A DNA stretch of 43,862 bases, from the IMG/VR virus record IMGVR_UViG_2541047828_000009, positions 1 to 43,862 of that record, one strand, 5' to 3'. The position numbers were made by a program, and so were the translations under genes. The DNA comes from a virus. Its lineage: Duplodnaviria; Heunggongvirae; Uroviricota; Caudoviricetes. Of the stretch, positions 6,377-14,270 are shown piece by piece (within the stretch, counting starts at the first letter, position 1; the number at the start of each line of letters is the position of its first letter). The notes beneath the pieces were generated by a model. The model was not told the origin of the DNA and did no database searches. It saw only the letters and a list, made by a program, of their open reading frames with translations.

Positions 6377-6583
6377 TTAATGGCTAAGGCCATGTCCTAA
6401 ACCGTTTAGATAAACCTCAACCAGCAAATCTTTGGTGTAGGTACGTTCGATGCCACGGTGAAGATACAGGCGACCGCGTGCGTTAGCAGATGCGGTCCAG
6501 GTTGAGTCTTTGTGTTTTACAAGCATCCCCGGCTGAACTGCGCCGCGGTTTACTGTCTGTGTACCGTAGTGCTGATGAACCAT
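6377..6583 (-). CDS. Kil-like small early protein (68 aa)
   Basis: ATG at 6583 with GGAG RBS; the track ORF extending to 6727 begins with TTG; positional analogy to kil of Rac/lambda; sequence identity not verified. Confidence 0.4.
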   Translation of the reverse strand: MVHQHYGTQTVNRGAVQPGMLVKHKDSTWTASANARGRLYLHRGIERTYTKDLLVEVYLNGLGHGLSH

Positions 6584-6835
6584 GATGTTCTCCACTATTG
6601 CTGAGTGAACTTCGCTGGTGGTGCCGTGACGCTGATCTTCACAGTTGAGCGTTTTAACTCTGCAATTCACCACCGCGAAGCTCACTTCTGTGTTTGCCCT
6701 TGTCGCCAGGCTGGCGGAACGTTTCAAACCTACTGCGCGTTAATATCACCACCTCATTCCGGTTTTCGTATGCCCCGGACGGCTACTTCGTGGGCTCCAT
6801 GCCTGGGTGGTTCGTGGTGCGTCTTGGTGATTGCA

Positions 6836-6864
6836 TATTAAGCCTGAGACTTAAATCATGTCAA
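6836..6864 (-). promoter_or_regulatory. pL-like early-left promoter
   Basis: On the minus strand TTGACA, 17-nt spacer, TTAATA; an operator palindrome overlaps the spacer and -10. Confidence 0.5.
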
Positions 6865-6901
6865 GCTCCAGGCGAAATGTGATTGTAAGTTTCAGGCTTA
6901 A
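6838..6901. promoter_or_regulatory. Left operator cluster (OL-like): two 17-bp TTAAG-N7-CTTAA palindromes
   Basis: ttaagcctgagacttaa (6838-6854) and gtaagtttcaggcttaa (6885-6901); the same motif recurs at the right operator. Confidence 0.7.
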
Positions 6902-7005
6902 TCGTGATGTTCACCGAATTGCAGGCAAAAAAAATCCCGACGCTAAGGTCGAGATCGGGGACTTCGTGGCTGGGTGTTGGCGGCTGAGATGGTGGGTGAG
7001 GGTGT

Positions 7006-7034
7006 AAAAAACCGGCGCTGTGGCCGGGTTTTTT
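7006..7034. terminator. Bidirectional rho-independent terminator
   Basis: aaaaaa-CCGGC-gctgtg-GCCGG-gtttttt; A-run on one side and T-run on the other; sits just past the end of the immunity cargo operon. Confidence 0.7.
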
Positions 7035-7036
7035 CA

Positions 7037-7141
7037 TTACTGCTGGTTAAATCCTTTCGGCGAGTGCTGCTGTTCTTTATTACCAAATTTTTGATTTACA
7101 ATGATTTTATAAGCGTTATTGAGAGCTTGCTTTATAGACAT
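7037..7141 (-). CDS. Small ORF (34 aa) downstream of the AT-rich cargo gene
   Basis: Hand translation MSIKQALNNAYKIIVNQKFGNKEQQHSPKGFNQQ; strong AAGGAG RBS 6 nt before the ATG; 17 nt after the stop of the 434-aa gene; followed by the terminator. Confidence 0.4.
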   Translation of the reverse strand: MSIKQALNNAYKIIVNQKFGNKEQQHSPKGFNQQ

Positions 7142-7158
7142 TAATATCTCCTTATGTG

Positions 7159-8463
7159 TTATTGACGATTAAAGTAGTTAGAGTTTAGCTCTTTAGGGAA
7201 GTAGTGTTTACGATTTACCCAAACAAATCCATCAACTTTTGATATCACAGCGACATCAACAGGCCCACCGACAGTTTCATAATCATGTGATACTTTTCTT
7301 TTGAATGCAGTGATGTTCACTAATGATTCGGCCATATACGCAAGATCTGCCTTCCCAAGTGATTGCAACATCGATATCATTTTATTTGTATGGTTATTAA
7401 CAATATAGCTTTCAAGTTTAGTATCGTGATCTTGTAAAAGTACGTTTTTGAGTTCCTCAATTTCACTGGAGAAGTGATTGGCTAGTACTCCATTGTTCAT
7501 TGCAGGGAAAATATTGCTAGAAACATAATGATTAAGCCGATCAAAAACTTCCTCTGTAAGAGTTCTGTTAAAATTAATGATGTTAGGGTTGCACCCATCA
7601 ATGAAAGTTACTACTTCATCTTCTTGAGCAAATGGTATAACAAACCCCATATTGGTTACCTCATTATGGGATTTATCATCAATATTATGGATCATCAATT
7701 TGTTTTTAAAAATGCCGTAGATATGAAGAGTGCAAATGGAAGGGTAATATTCTTCCTCTCCATAACCTGTTATAACAATCCCTGAATATGTACGACTAGC
7801 ATGGACTTTGAAAATTAAACAAGTGGAATATAATATGACTTTTTCCATAAGCTCTTGCTGTATATTTTCACAGTTATCAAGAACAATAATTGATGAAATG
7901 TATGGCGATATTAAATCTTGTATATATGCTAAAGCATCATTAAACTCTTCTGTATCAAACCCTTCGAAAAAGAGATTATTCCTTAAGATTCCTATCTCTA
8001 AATCAAAGGCTTGCTTAACTATGTTTTGAAAAATAACATTGTCGAGTTCAACGGCGGGGTTCATTGTTAAATAGTTTACTACATTATTATCATTAATGTA
8101 TCTCATCAAACCTTTGAGGTTATCAACAACAAGGTTTATAACGCAAGCCTCTCTCATTTCATTTGTTATAAGGTCTGAGTTACCATTGATGAATTTTACA
8201 AAGTCATTAACATATTCTTTAATGGTAGGGAAACTAGTTTTCCCCAATTGTTTTCTATAGGATTTAATTATAAGTTCCCACGGTGCGCCACCCAGTGTCG
8301 CATTATTATAAATCATGATCCCCACGGGATGGTGTTTAGATAGTTCGAATAGTTTTTCCGCACTATTATTTATTTTTACTAATCTATTATGCTCTGTGGT
8401 GACTGCAGAGTCAGCAGCAAGGGCGATTCCAGTATTATTTATTACAACAATCTCAGCTGTCAT
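7159..8463 (-). CDS. AT-rich hypothetical protein (434 aa), candidate superinfection-exclusion or abortive-infection factor
   Basis: Start chosen at ATG 8463 (MTAEIVVINNTGIALAADSAVT); an in-frame ATGATG at 8562 would give the 467-aa track ORF; codon usage conspicuously AT-rich versus flanks; co-oriented immediately downstream of the repressor. Confidence 0.7.
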   Translation of the reverse strand: MTAEIVVINNTGIALAADSAVTTEHNRLVKINNSAEKLFELSKHHPVGIMIYNNATLGGAPWELIIKSYRKQLGKTSFPTIKEYVNDFVKFINGNSDLITNEMREACVINLVVDNLKGLMRYINDNNVVNYLTMNPAVELDNVIFQNIVKQAFDLEIGILRNNLFFEGFDTEEFNDALAYIQDLISPYISSIIVLDNCENIQQELMEKVILYSTCLIFKVHASRTYSGIVITGYGEEEYYPSICTLHIYGIFKNKLMIHNIDDKSHNEVTNMGFVIPFAQEDEVVTFIDGCNPNIINFNRTLTEEVFDRLNHYVSSNIFPAMNNGVLANHFSSEIEELKNVLLQDHDTKLESYIVNNHTNKMISMLQSLGKADLAYMAESLVNITAFKRKVSHDYETVGGPVDVAVISKVDGFVWVNRKHYFPKELNSNYFNRQ

Positions 8464-8604
8464 TGCAAAACATCCCGTGTAGTAGTGATAAATATTAATT
8501 AAATTGATAGTTTTTTTCAATCTAACATAAATGGCGGAATCACCCCCCAGTAAAGACATCATTGTCTCATGGGAACTAAAAATTCAGGACAAACCTAAAG
8601 CGAT

Positions 8605-8991
8605 TCAGTCCCCCTGCGAGCGAATCCGCCCCTTCATGTACTTCTCATACAGCTCATCCAGTTCCTTAAGACGTATCGAAAAGATGCGGAGCATGTTCTG
8701 TTGCTCTTCTTCTGGCAGCTGGCGGTAGAGCTCAAGCAGGCGCTGTTCGTCCGGCTTAAGTCCGTCCTTCTCGCCGACATCCTCACCGAGTAACCAAGGC
8801 ACAGACACGCCAGCTGCGTCAGCGACAGCGAGAGCTGATTTCTTGCTGATCACGCCTTTTTTAAACCAGCCGTTCACAGACTGCGGGGTTACCCCAGCAA
8901 CCCTGGCCATATCGGATTTGGTCATACCGCGCCCGTTCAGCTCTGAAAGGCGTTCGACAAGTATCGGATTAAGTACGGTTTTCTCTTTCAT
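8605..8991 (-). CDS. Prophage repressor, XRE-type HTH (cI functional analogue), 128 aa
   Basis: HTH segment MTKSDMARVAGVTPQSVNGWFKKG; divergent from the cro-like gene across an operator cluster; no SD before the ATG (leaderless-like, as for lambda cI from pRM); no C-terminal S24 peptidase domain. Confidence 0.8.
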   Translation of the reverse strand: MKEKTVLNPILVERLSELNGRGMTKSDMARVAGVTPQSVNGWFKKGVISKKSALAVADAAGVSVPWLLGEDVGEKDGLKPDEQRLLELYRQLPEEEQQNMLRIFSIRLKELDELYEKYMKGRIRSQGD

Positions 8992-9001
8992 GGTTAGAAG
9001 A

Positions 9002-9067
9002 ATAAGCCTTTTGCTTAAACTTGAAAATTCGCCTCAGGCTTGACAATAAATTAAGTCTCAGGCTTAA
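9002..9067. promoter_or_regulatory. Right operator cluster (OR-like): three TTAAG-N7-CTTAA-type sites
   Basis: ataagccttttgcttaa (9002-9018), weaker ttcgcctcaggcttgac (9028-9044), ttaagtctcaggcttaa (9051-9067). Confidence 0.7.
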
Positions 9068-9068
9068 T
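9040..9068 (+). promoter_or_regulatory. pR-like early-right promoter
   Basis: Perfect -35 TTGACA at 9040-9045, 17/18-nt spacer containing an operator site, -10-like CTTAAT/TTAATT. Confidence 0.55.
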
Positions 9069-9095
9069 TTGATTGTATTCAAATCGGAGACAACG

Positions 9096-9314
9096 ATGAA
9101 CGGGTTAACGAAAGCCATTAAGTCCGCTGGCACTGCAACAAATCTCGCAACCATGCTGGGCATCAAGCCGATGTCGGTCAGCCGCTGGAAAAACCGGTAC
9201 CAGGGCGTGGTGCCTGCTGATCGGGTCCTTCAAATCTACGCGGCTACCGGCGTAACTCCACACGAGCTGCGCCCTGATCTCTATCCAAATCCCACTGACG
9301 GATTACCAAAGTAG
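9096..9314 (+). CDS. Cro/YdaS-like HTH regulator (72 aa)
   Basis: ATG 9096 with GGAGA 5 nt upstream; HTH segment TATNLATMLGIKPMSVSRWKNR; divergent from the repressor. Confidence 0.7.
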   Translation: MNGLTKAIKSAGTATNLATMLGIKPMSVSRWKNRYQGVVPADRVLQIYAATGVTPHELRPDLYPNPTDGLPK

Positions 9315-12499: not shown

Positions 12500-12519
12500 T
12501 ACTGTATAAAAACACAGTA
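12500..12519. promoter_or_regulatory. LexA (SOS) box overlapping the dinI-like promoter
   Basis: taCTGTataaaaacACAGta fits CTGT-N8-ACAG; TTGATA is 17 nt upstream; gene starts 18 nt downstream. Confidence 0.75.
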
Positions 12520-12537
12520 AATGCAATGGGGGCCATT

Positions 12538-12771
12538 ATGAAAGTTGAATTAACCATTGATCGTATGAAAGAACTTCCTAAAGGCGCAGTACCAGCACTG
12601 GAGAAAGAACTGCTTAAGCGCCTGAATGATCACTATGACAATTGCAGGCTCACAATCCGCCGTGCCGGGGCCGATGGGTTAAGTGTTTTTGGTGGTGACA
12701 AGGACGATAAAAAGAAAATTGAATCAATCCTCCAGGATACCTGGGAAAGCGCTGACGACTGGTTTTATTAG
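12538..12771 (+). CDS. dinI: DinI-family DNA damage-inducible protein
   Basis: MKVELTIDRMKELPKGAV ... ILQDTWESADDWFY matches the DinI N- and C-terminal signatures; LexA box upstream. Confidence 0.85.
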   Translation: MKVELTIDRMKELPKGAVPALEKELLKRLNDHYDNCRLTIRRAGADGLSVFGGDKDDKKKIESILQDTWESADDWFY

Positions 12772-12888
12772 AATTGCGCTTAAGGCTGGCGCGCATTTTT
12801 CAGAATACCGCAATTTGCGTAACCCTCTGATGCTGCTGCCGACAATCTTTAATCGCGTCTGTTAGTCGCTCGAAGGGAGAACATAAAT

Positions 12889-13137
12889 GTGAGTGATTCA
12901 GCTTTGCAAACGTCAGAAGACAACTGGTATGACATTGTAAGAAGGTCTGACGGCTGCGTGGTGTTTAGCTTTCCTTCATCGGGCAGGCATCTAATTTATC
13001 GCGTCAATGGCATGGTTTCTATGCGGCCTTTGCTGGATGATGAAGAGGTCTTTACTCCTAATGGTTTTATGCAGTTTATTCACCGTCTCGGCTACCGGGT
13101 AACCCCACCTTCTGATAATATGAAATCAACGGTCTGA
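12889..13137 (+). CDS. Hypothetical nin-region protein (82 aa)
   Basis: GTG start with GAAGGGAGA RBS; no recognisable domain. Confidence 0.45.
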   Translation: MSDSALQTSEDNWYDIVRRSDGCVVFSFPSSGRHLIYRVNGMVSMRPLLDDEEVFTPNGFMQFIHRLGYRVTPPSDNMKSTV

Positions 13138-13171
13138 ACAACCGTAACCTACTGCGCCACGGAGAGAAACC

Positions 13172-13771
13172 ATGGCGCACGAACTACAACTCATCAAGCA
13201 TTCCTCAGGAATCCTGATCCCCGCTACGCCGGAGACCAGTGATTTACTGCAATCAAAAATCAAACTCGGCTCCGTACTGGTGGCTGAGTTCCGGCAGGTA
13301 CGCAACCCGGCCTTTCACCGTCGTTTCTTCGCGTTACTCAATCTCGGTTTCGAATACTGGGAACCCACCGGCGGGGCAATCTCCTCCAACGAACGCAAGC
13401 TGGTAACCGGCTATGCCAAGTTCCTTGCCTCATTCGCGGGAAGTGAAGCAGCACTCCTGGATGCTGCTGAGCAATATCTGGACCGCATCGCCGATAAGCG
13501 TACTGGTAGCATCTGCGCCTGTAAGTCATTCGATGCATATCGTGCATGGGTCACTATTGAGTCCGGCCATTACGACGCCATTCAGCTGCCTGACGGCACC
13601 CTCCGCAAACATCCCCGCAGTATCTCATTCGCAAATATGGATGAAACTGAGTTCCAGCAGCTGTACAAAGCCGCGCTCGATGTTCTGTGGCGATGGATAC
13701 TCTCCCGATCATTTCGCAGTTGTGAAGAGGCAGAAAACGCCGCCGCCCAGCTGATGAGCTTTGCGGGGTGA
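13172..13771 (+). CDS. Hypothetical nin-region protein (199 aa)
   Basis: GGAGAGA RBS; conserved-looking phage protein of unknown function. Confidence 0.6.
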   Translation: MAHELQLIKHSSGILIPATPETSDLLQSKIKLGSVLVAEFRQVRNPAFHRRFFALLNLGFEYWEPTGGAISSNERKLVTGYAKFLASFAGSEAALLDAAEQYLDRIADKRTGSICACKSFDAYRAWVTIESGHYDAIQLPDGTLRKHPRSISFANMDETEFQQLYKAALDVLWRWILSRSFRSCEEAENAAAQLMSFAG

Positions 13772-13977
13772 TGGCGATGAAATTTTCCTGGTTCCACCAT
13801 CACGAATGCACCACCGAACAGGCCGACGAGCTGGTGGAGAAATACCGGGCGCGCGGTGTAAAGACAGAGCGCAGCCTGAATCGCGACAACATCACCTGGA
13901 CCGTCAGCGCGCAATTGCCGGAAGGCGATAACGCGCCTCGCCCGAGCCGGGTATGGCAAAGCAAGGCGTGGGGGTGA
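13768..13977 (+). CDS. Hypothetical protein (69 aa)
   Basis: Start overlaps the previous stop; several candidate starts (GTG 13768, ATG 13771/13777). Confidence 0.45.
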   Translation: MMAMKFSWFHHHECTTEQADELVEKYRARGVKTERSLNRDNITWTVSAQLPEGDNAPRPSRVWQSKAWG

Positions 13978-13979
13978 GC

Positions 13980-14270
13980 ATGGCAAATTTACGCAAAGAG
14001 GCTCGTGGTCGTGATTGTCAGGTTCGAATTCCCGGCGTCTGCAACGGTAACCCGGAAACGTCTGTACTGGCGCACATTCGCCTGGCCGGGTTATGTGGCA
14101 CCGGAATCAAACCGCCTGATCTGATTGCCACCATTGCATGCTCTGCCTGTCACGACGAGATCGACCGCCGTACACATTTTGTCGATGCTGAGTATGCTAA
14201 AGAATGCGCGCTGGAAGGTATGGCGAGAACGCAGGTTATCTGGCTGAAAGAGGGGGTAATCAAGGCGTGA
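13980..14270 (+). CDS. Cys-rich nin-region protein, YbcO-like as recalled
   Basis: [34 protein letters not shown] ... [24 protein letters not shown]; family name from memory, unverified. Confidence 0.55.

Follow-up and report, generated by a model that had tools for sequence, protein, structure and literature searches.

The virus record IMGVR_UViG_2541047828_000009, analysed here over its full 43,862 nucleotides (positions 1 to 43,862, hereafter the window), is a whole lambdoid/Rac-like Escherichia coli prophage, and at 7006-8604 it carries a self-contained, horizontally mobile two-gene cassette in a variable cargo slot between the repressor gene and the left operator and promoter (OL/PL). 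As judged from its modelled fold, the product of the larger gene is a cytoplasmic N-terminal-nucleophile (Ntn) hydrolase of the proteasome family with an intact Thr1/Asp17/Lys33 triad, and the smaller gene encodes a 34-amino-acid (aa) partner. The fold family is already known and has been catalogued; new as far as the searchable literature shows are the micro-protein partner, the cassette structure, and the preference for two prophage accessory slots, one beside the repressor and the other between Q and the holin gene. A role in defence or abortive infection is plausible from the position and mobility of the cassette. A first-pass annotation, made without database searches, had described the repressor, a 434-aa AT-rich open reading frame (ORF), a 34-aa ORF and a closing terminator, all co-oriented, and every one of these elements is present (Table 1).

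Fold and family of the large protein

The same annotation had found that the 434-aa protein matched nothing recognisable, a statement that does not hold, as the protein is a proteasome-family Ntn hydrolase belonging to a very large, catalogued but uncharacterised family. The profile and structure searches that it had proposed placed the protein by Foldseek with proteasome beta subunits and Anbu, and returned no defence match in PADLOC. At the sequence level, neither the large nor the small cassette protein has a significant match in Pfam, NCBIfam, PADLOC or, by phmmer, among PDB sequences; the large protein matches phrog_5990 over its full length (E=2e-178), a family to which no function is assigned. 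An AlphaFold2 (AF2) model built from 34 homologues (pLDDT 85.7, pTM 0.80) predicts a beta-sandwich core composed of residues 4-60, 227-277 and 402-419, broken by two long helical insertions at about residues 101-222 (extra helices at 101-218) and 293-368, each flanked by elements of the core. All of the top 50 Foldseek matches in the PDB are 20S proteasome beta subunits or Anbu, with E-values down to 3e-4, probability 1.0 and a target TM of ~0.5. A profile search of PDB sequences ranked the beta subunit of T. acidophilum first at a non-significant E=0.7, the match falling on the C-terminal signature, where SGGMIDVAVITRKDGY is aligned with VGGPIDVAVISKGDGF.

Conservation across 262 family members is concentrated in the core, where the mean frequency of the top residue is 0.71-0.78 compared with 0.28-0.30 in the insertions. 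T2 is kept in 98% of these proteins and D18, K30 and K37 in 100%, and alignment by eye to the N-terminus of the T. acidophilum subunit makes T2, D18 and K37 the equivalents of Thr1, Asp17 and Lys33 once the initiator Met is removed; the LAADSA.T and K-L-F contexts also resemble those of that subunit. Since the protein begins Met-Thr, removal of Met would expose Thr1. The fold matches, together with the conservation of T2, D18 and K37, suggest that the large protein is probably active as an Ntn hydrolase equipped with two poorly conserved helical modules. None of the 262 proteins is a fusion of the small protein to the large one, and the N-terminal 'extensions' seen in this set look like start-codon mis-annotations.

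A start-codon error probably also affects the E. coli protein itself. RefSeq (WP_225104017) gives the large ORF as 467 aa starting at the ATG at 8562; the homologues, almost all of which begin M-T-A-E/V and measure 415-445 aa, support the start at 8463 that had been chosen at first pass. The longer form thus appears to be a mis-annotation that has spread to 229 database entries. The 33 additional RefSeq codons (8464-8562, minus strand) include a promoter-like site, and their translation would leave the Thr1 nucleophile buried.

The family is large and widely distributed. More than 6,150 proteins among the scored candidates match at E<=1e-3, all of them named 'hypothetical'. A search of 1.84 billion representatives gave 4,962 clusters at 50% identity. 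At least 534 GTDB species genomes carry a member, spanning Nitrospirota, Planctomycetota, Firmicutes, Bacteroidota, Cyanobacteria and archaea, the last including Methanosaeta, ANME-1 and Woesearchaeota. Viral carriers comprise 238 IMG/VR contigs and 13 GenBank phages or satellites (Stenotrophomonas, Providencia and Porphyromonas phages, and Streptococcus satellites). Fuchs, Alva and Lupas catalogued 22 uncharacterised proteasome homologues in 2021, including PMI-4 ('Proteasome homolog with Multiple Insertions', group 4), which comprises 501 nr90 sequences from most bacterial phyla, Euryarchaeota and phages, has insertions after H1/H2 and between H3/H4, and is represented by HDY66466.1 (KEGG OC.661505-661513); they argued that the PMI insertions would clash with ring formation (PMC8665760). 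Compared with this published description rather than by sequence, the large protein most likely belongs to PMI-4.

The small partner protein

The 34-aa product is basic and hydrophilic and, as read from its sequence, has no membrane-spanning segment. Its ribosome-binding site, called near-ideal at first pass, is indeed AAGGAG with a 6-nt spacer. A small ORF with a Shine-Dalgarno site lies 3' of the large gene in all eight loci first examined (Klebsiella, Serratia, and phages or satellites of Providencia, Stenotrophomonas, Porphyromonas and Streptococcus), and a small ORF of 28-100 aa was found downstream of the large gene in 89 of 90 loci, its start often overlapping the large-gene stop by 4-14 nt. 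This near-universal arrangement indicates a conserved two-gene cassette and that the 34-aa ORF is no chance ORF. The second gene is either translationally coupled to the first or closely spaced behind it, and accompanies it across Bacteria, Archaea and phages. It is absent from the RefSeq annotation, and equivalent small ORFs are uncalled in most loci examined (Klebsiella, K. pneumoniae, Enterobacter and one of two Serratia), which may explain why no gene co-occurrence has been reported for the family.

Several sequence types of small protein occupy the downstream position: a main type (38 loci), a Bacteroidota type (12), an enterobacterial type of 34-35 aa found in E. coli, Klebsiella, Serratia and Rahnella (8), and a Stenotrophomonas/K. 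pneumoniae type (5). The main type has a basic N-terminus followed by Y.S..E[FW]EK.[FY][FL]P and then G..LA.ESL.K. A hidden Markov model (HMM) seeded with 31 main-type proteins was run against the 23,676 segments obtained by six-frame translation of all loci. Of its 38 matches at E<=0.01, 37 fell at the downstream position and the other was also adjacent, and the search recovered further downstream ORFs that were not in the seed. Iterated jackhmmer searches left the types unconnected, including the enterobacterial 34-aa type and the main type, so that position, and not sequence, is the basis for equating the E. coli peptide with main-type proteins.

In Klebsiella, Serratia and Rahnella, the large gene is followed by orthologous ORFs of the enterobacterial type, 34-35 aa long and each with a Shine-Dalgarno site, and the large proteins paired with partners of this type are 46-70% identical to the E. 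coli protein. The N-terminal 20 residues of the small protein are kept (MS[ILV].[QK][AI][LI]..AYK[IV]I...KF) and synonymous changes are frequent, Serratia and Rahnella differing by 8 synonymous and 4 non-synonymous codons. A terminator hairpin of the same type (AACCCGGC...GCCGGGTTTTTT) lies 3' of the small ORF in Klebsiella, Serratia and Rahnella, while the upstream promoter regions, unlike the terminator type, are not conserved among these relatives.

Pairing was also observed between the N-terminus of the large protein and the type of its partner. Large proteins that start MTAVV, as opposed to MTAEI, pair with the Bacteroidota-type partner (...SNKDVLSAFK...GMS..EISE.VSEKI..VVKEQFE; loci L033, L037, L038, L044, L048, L061, L067, L070, L077 and L085). 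The residue at position 4, three after the nucleophile, thus co-varies with partner type, a pattern that could be phylogenetic.

Locus architecture, mobility and prophage slots

Base composition sets the cassette apart from its surroundings, with GC in 500-nt windows across 7001-8500 of 0.36, 0.32 and 0.34 compared with 0.50-0.52 on either side, which bears out the earlier description of AT-rich cargo. The block is bracketed, as had also been proposed, by two operator clusters (6839-6900 and 9028-9066). Copies of the operator-like sequence TAAGCCTGAGACTTA lie at 6839-6853, 6886-6900 and 9052-9066, the last matching without a mismatch on the minus strand. Two further, related sites form a pair at 6859-6876 and 9028-9045, the latter reading TTCGCCTCAGGCTTGACA. 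Six operator matches were observed where 0.62 were expected, and none of 100 shuffles reached six. The first-pass comparison of this site with the rexAB slot of lambda stands for position and orientation between the repressor and the leftward operator/promoter, but does not extend to homology with RexA or RexB.

Table 1. Positions and properties of the cassette and the features around it in the window
Feature	Position	Strand	Description
Prophage repressor	8991..8605	-	128-aa helix-turn-helix (HTH) protein, DicA/RacR type, without S24 self-cleavage domain
Spacer, repressor to large ORF			141 nt, AT-rich
Sigma-70-like promoter candidate, cassette	8520..8492	-	TTGAAA-17-TAATAT, consensus scan 9/12, consensus match only
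Large ORF	8463..7159	-	434 aa, predicted proteasome-beta-like (PMI-type) N-terminal-threonine hydrolase
Spacer, large ORF to small ORF			17 nt
Shine-Dalgarno AAGGAG of small ORF	7153..7148	-	6 nt ahead of ATG, read from sequence
Small ORF	7141..7037	-	34-aa partner protein, MSIKQALNNAYKIIVNQKFGNKEQQHSPKGFNQQ
Intrinsic terminator closing the cassette	7006..7034	-	stem 7027..7012, 5 G-C pairs, CCGGCCACAGCGCCGG then TTTTTT
Left operator cluster (OL-like)	6835..6900	.	operator copies and leftward promoter-like site
Leftward promoter-like site	6864..6835		TTGACA-18-TAATAT, strong, scan 10/12, faces kil-like gene
kil-like ORF	6727..6377		phrog_294, E=2e-36
Right operator cluster (OR-like)	9028..9066	.	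between repressor and divergent YdaS/Cro-like gene
Right-hand neighbours			divergent YdaS/Cro-like gene and YdaT/CII-like gene

The repressor matches Pfam HTH_3 (E=1e-6) and phrog_8, 'transcriptional regulator' (E=6e-18), scores E=1.7e-8 against the NCBIfam DicA subfamily, which is below that model's cutoff, and shares 74% identity with the protein annotated as prophage repressor in phage mEp237. No terminator separates it from the large gene, so co-transcription of the cassette with the repressor is possible; the candidate promoter in the spacer may offer an alternative to this read-through. Some 50 nt past the cassette terminator and before the left operators, a second terminator-like hairpin (6933-6956, minus strand; 9 pairs then TTTTTTT) would doubly insulate PL and kil against read-through.

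The cassette is sporadic and consistently foreign in composition. The region 6900-9100 is 100% identical to NZ_CP151050 (strain 20KM2222), and a DNA match of any kind turned up in only 15 of the 5,426 complete E. coli genomes searched (~0.3%), 13 of which hold most of the block. The cassette has a lower GC content than its flanks at 97% of 77 genome loci and at 100% of 77 viral loci, the mean difference being -9.1 points in the former set and -12.6 points in the latter. Homologues occur on 10 of 72,556 plasmids, mostly megaplasmids. The nearest neighbours at 75 non-enteric genome loci represent 172 Pfam families in 145 proteins, none of them seen more than twice, and a Pfam and PADLOC scan of these neighbours revealed no conserved third gene; this heterogeneity argues that there is no third component at nearest-neighbour resolution.

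Prophages and related elements offer a more regular picture of where the cassette resides. In Enterobacterales, all contexts examined are prophage accessory slots. In E. coli and in each of four different Klebsiella prophages the cassette comes immediately after a cI-type repressor gene, and the Klebsiella cases include an orthologue with 70% identity behind a cI-type S24 self-cleaving repressor; the cassette is antisense between Q and holin in Serratia and Enterobacter, and adjoins the holin gene in K. pneumoniae and in a Stenotrophomonas phage. The commonest nearest neighbours at 56 dereplicated IMG/VR loci are Phage_antitermQ (17), HTH_3 (11), holins (7), Peptidase_S24 (4) and Phage_CI_repr (3), and Streptococcus phage satellites also carry the cassette. 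Most family members are not adjacent to any repressor.

Phages with homologous repressors, namely PHB10 (84% repressor identity), SEN34 (82%) and mEp237 (74%), have unrelated cargo between repressor and kil, from which it follows that this slot is variable. The alternative cargo consists of small hypothetical proteins, a second HTH paralogue and an HNH endonuclease, and is also uncharacterised. According to the literature (PMC8585504), the interval between cI and N is a known hotspot of mosaicism in which RexAB and BstA reside, and its transcription in lysogens is high.

Other accessory genes were observed in the window and in related prophages. An Enterobacter prophage with the cassette in the Q-holin slot (L096) encodes a 580-aa AAA_15/AAA_21 ATPase of OLD/Gabija-like type at 12514-14256 and a D12 methyltransferase in its early region, both of which are possibly further defence cargo. 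In the window itself, a second AT-rich antisense gene (38239-39330, minus strand; GC 0.34-0.39) stands among the tail-fibre genes and encodes a 363-aa Acyl_transf_3 protein (E=4e-15) that looks like an O-antigen or surface acetyltransferase with a lysogenic-conversion or receptor-masking role. At the right end, a resolvase/invertase gene (43269-43862, plus strand; Resolvase E=5e-39 and HTH_7) adjoins the tail-fibre region and suggests an invertible tail-fibre, or host-range, switch; the same kind of resolvase gene flanks the cassette-bearing prophages of K. pneumoniae (L092-L094).

Possible functions and comparison with known systems

We tentatively favour, as a possibility that may well prove wrong, that the cassette is expressed in the lysogen and encodes a gated protease that protects against other phages by abortive infection or exclusion. 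Expression would come from the cassette's own promoter or from read-through of the repressor transcript. The small protein would bind to the hydrolase and keep it silent, serving as its pseudo-substrate, inhibitor or first substrate; infection would then remove or outcompete the partner, or a phage product would engage the variable helical insertions, and the freed Thr1 site would cleave a host or phage protein, blocking phage production. A more general proposal, which we put forward with some doubt, is that the family constitutes a new pan-prokaryotic immune or conflict class in which a proteasome-family Thr hydrolase, working either by proteolysis or by Connectase-like transpeptidation, is controlled by a dedicated micro-protein that annotation systematically misses, and uses its variable insertions as a sensor.

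A number of observations weigh against a defensive role. PADLOC-DB v2.0.0, which covers known and candidate systems, yielded 0 families at E<=1 for both cassette proteins, for which there is likewise no Pfam or NCBIfam model, and the alternative cargo of PHB10, mEp237 and SEN34 gave generic HTH matches only in PADLOC and no known defence system. The neighbours in the 75 genome loci are mostly ordinary genes (ThiC, Hsp70, NADH dehydrogenase, transporters), with few exceptions among the 145 proteins (methylases, one type I restriction subunit, zeta toxins, mad2-like, a transposase and a phage GPA), and the nearest neighbour on each side of these loci gave no clear defence-island signal, as assessed without a background comparison. 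We found no paper in the literature tying proteasome homologues or the cassette to phage defence, and the PMI homologues were reported to have no informative genomic context (Fuchs et al. 2021; PMC8665760).

These same negative results would suit a regulated accessory peptidase that benefits host or prophage in some other way, for instance in stress proteolysis or the processing of peptides, and is carried like any lysogenic-conversion gene. The absence of a defence database match, the many chromosomal copies between housekeeping genes, and the non-defensive nature of further proteasome homologues (HslV, Anbu, BPH) all point in this direction, yet we judge such a non-defence role rather unlikely. 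The family is extremely patchy (~0.3% of E. coli genomes), its base composition is consistently foreign, it recurs in prophage and satellite accessory slots, and its insertions are poorly conserved, and a conflict or selfish module therefore fits better than a physiological enzyme. One such module would be a selfish unit resembling a toxin-antitoxin system, in which the protease would arrest growth as the toxin and the small partner, probably labile, would be its antitoxin, the function being addiction or stress arrest and any anti-phage effect incidental. The compact two-gene operon with frequent start/stop overlap (-4 to -14 nt), the insertion beside unrelated genes, the AT-rich and patchy distribution, and the occurrence in prophages and satellites beside RelBE-type modules are all in keeping with this idea. 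It is nonetheless made improbable by the rarity of plasmid carriage (10 of 72,556), the lack of a recognisable DNA-binding antitoxin domain in the small protein, the less common gene order with the large gene first, and the absence of any toxin-antitoxin model or domain match in Pfam, NCBIfam and PADLOC.

The chemistry could also be ligation rather than degradation. A Connectase-like transpeptidase or tagging enzyme would recognise a short motif in the partner ([FY][FL]P in the main type, K-F-G in E. coli), form an acyl-enzyme at Thr1 and ligate a fragment to itself or to a target as a tag. Such an activity would be compatible with a Thr1 enzyme that has no propeptide and whose insertions should block ring formation according to Fuchs et al., and with the co-variation of position 4 with partner type (main-type partners go with MTAEI, Bacteroidota-type partners with MTAVV), which could however be purely phylogenetic. 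The main-type partner has a conserved aromatic-Pro motif, but this is not kept in the enterobacterial, Bacteroidota or Stenotrophomonas partner types. The motif of Connectase reportedly has a Pro at the scissile bond, of which the main-type aromatic-Pro is reminiscent; the partners show [FY][FL]P or K-F-G and no KDPGA-type motif. With Connectase also absent from the top 50 Foldseek matches, and with no two-helix insertion between S3 and S4 in the model (no helices between strands 38-40 and 47-53), we hold this alternative to be distinctly improbable. Still less credible is an anti-repressor protease that would cleave the adjacent repressor and trigger induction, as ImmA does ImmR in ICEBs1, an idea raised because the repressor lacks an S24 self-cleavage domain. 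The protease gene does lie directly downstream of, and co-oriented with, a non-S24 HTH repressor, and HTH_3 is the nearest neighbour in 11 of 56 viral loci; however, the closest orthologue, in Klebsiella, stands behind an S24 self-cleaving cI, most copies are away from repressors or outside phages, phages with the same type of repressor lack the cassette, and ImmA-type proteins are M78/COG2856 metalloproteases with an unrelated fold. As cassette and repressor are unlinked across loci, we largely reject this explanation.

No function is known for proteasome homologues other than HslV, 20S and Connectase, and the catalogue of 2021 offered no genomic clue to one. The present locus supplies three: a micro-protein partner, a terminator-bounded mobile cassette, and recurrence in two classic slots expressed in lysogeny. 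Together they turn an uncharacterised family of ~5,000 clusters into a testable hypothesis on a 1.6-kb E. coli fragment. If the cassette does act in defence, prokaryotic immunity would gain an effector fold and a regulatory logic that are both new; if it represents a wider immune class, this would be the first function for the PMI group and the first anti-phage use of the proteasome fold; and should the enzyme prove to be a ligase, it could be put to use in protein engineering, as with Connectase.

In its position, the cassette resembles the cI-rexA-rexB operon of lambda and the cI-bstA operon of BTP1, where cargo also lies directly downstream of the repressor, co-oriented and before OL/PL; it is likewise AT-rich with its own terminator and, like rexAB, a two-gene unit. 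The resemblance stops there, as neither cassette protein shows sequence or fold similarity to RexA, RexB or BstA in PADLOC, Pfam, PHROG or Foldseek comparisons. RexB is a polytopic membrane protein, whereas the 34-aa partner is hydrophilic and not a membrane channel, and, in contrast to BstA, the cassette is not tied to a repressor locus and is mostly found elsewhere. The proposed logic of a latent protease or toxin released upon infection from a compact mobile operon is shared with Lit-type abortive-infection proteases and type II toxin-antitoxin systems, the latter likewise built from two adjacent, translationally coupled genes, one of them for a small protein. Lit, a zinc metalloprotease, has an unrelated fold, and the cassette lacks the DNA-binding antitoxin of type II systems.

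Within the proteasome fold, the large protein shares architecture and catalytic residues with the T1-family enzymes HslV, Anbu, BPH and 20S beta, of which 20S beta and Anbu are the best structural matches. It differs from them in its two helical insertions, which add ~230 residues and, as argued by Fuchs et al., probably rule out stacked rings. The cassette, moreover, has no AAA+ partner gene, is mobile and sporadic, and encodes a tiny dedicated partner. Archaeal Connectase is likewise a divergent Thr1 proteasome homologue and provides a precedent for non-degradative chemistry in this fold, being, as is said, a monomeric, sequence-specific protein ligase that acts on one short motif. The insertion pattern of the large protein is different, its model lacking a helical lid between S3 and S4, and Connectase, to our knowledge, occurs in methanogens only and lacks a small partner gene next to its own. 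The closest likeness is to PMI-4, with which the large protein shares the proteasome-beta-like core, the Thr1/Asp17/Lys33 triad without a propeptide, insertion positions that in the AF2 model fit the published description, and a large membership distributed across bacterial phyla, Euryarchaeota and phages. Where that description reports no informative context, the family examined here shows an obligate small partner ORF behind the large gene, a cassette bounded by a terminator, and a preference for particular prophage slots.

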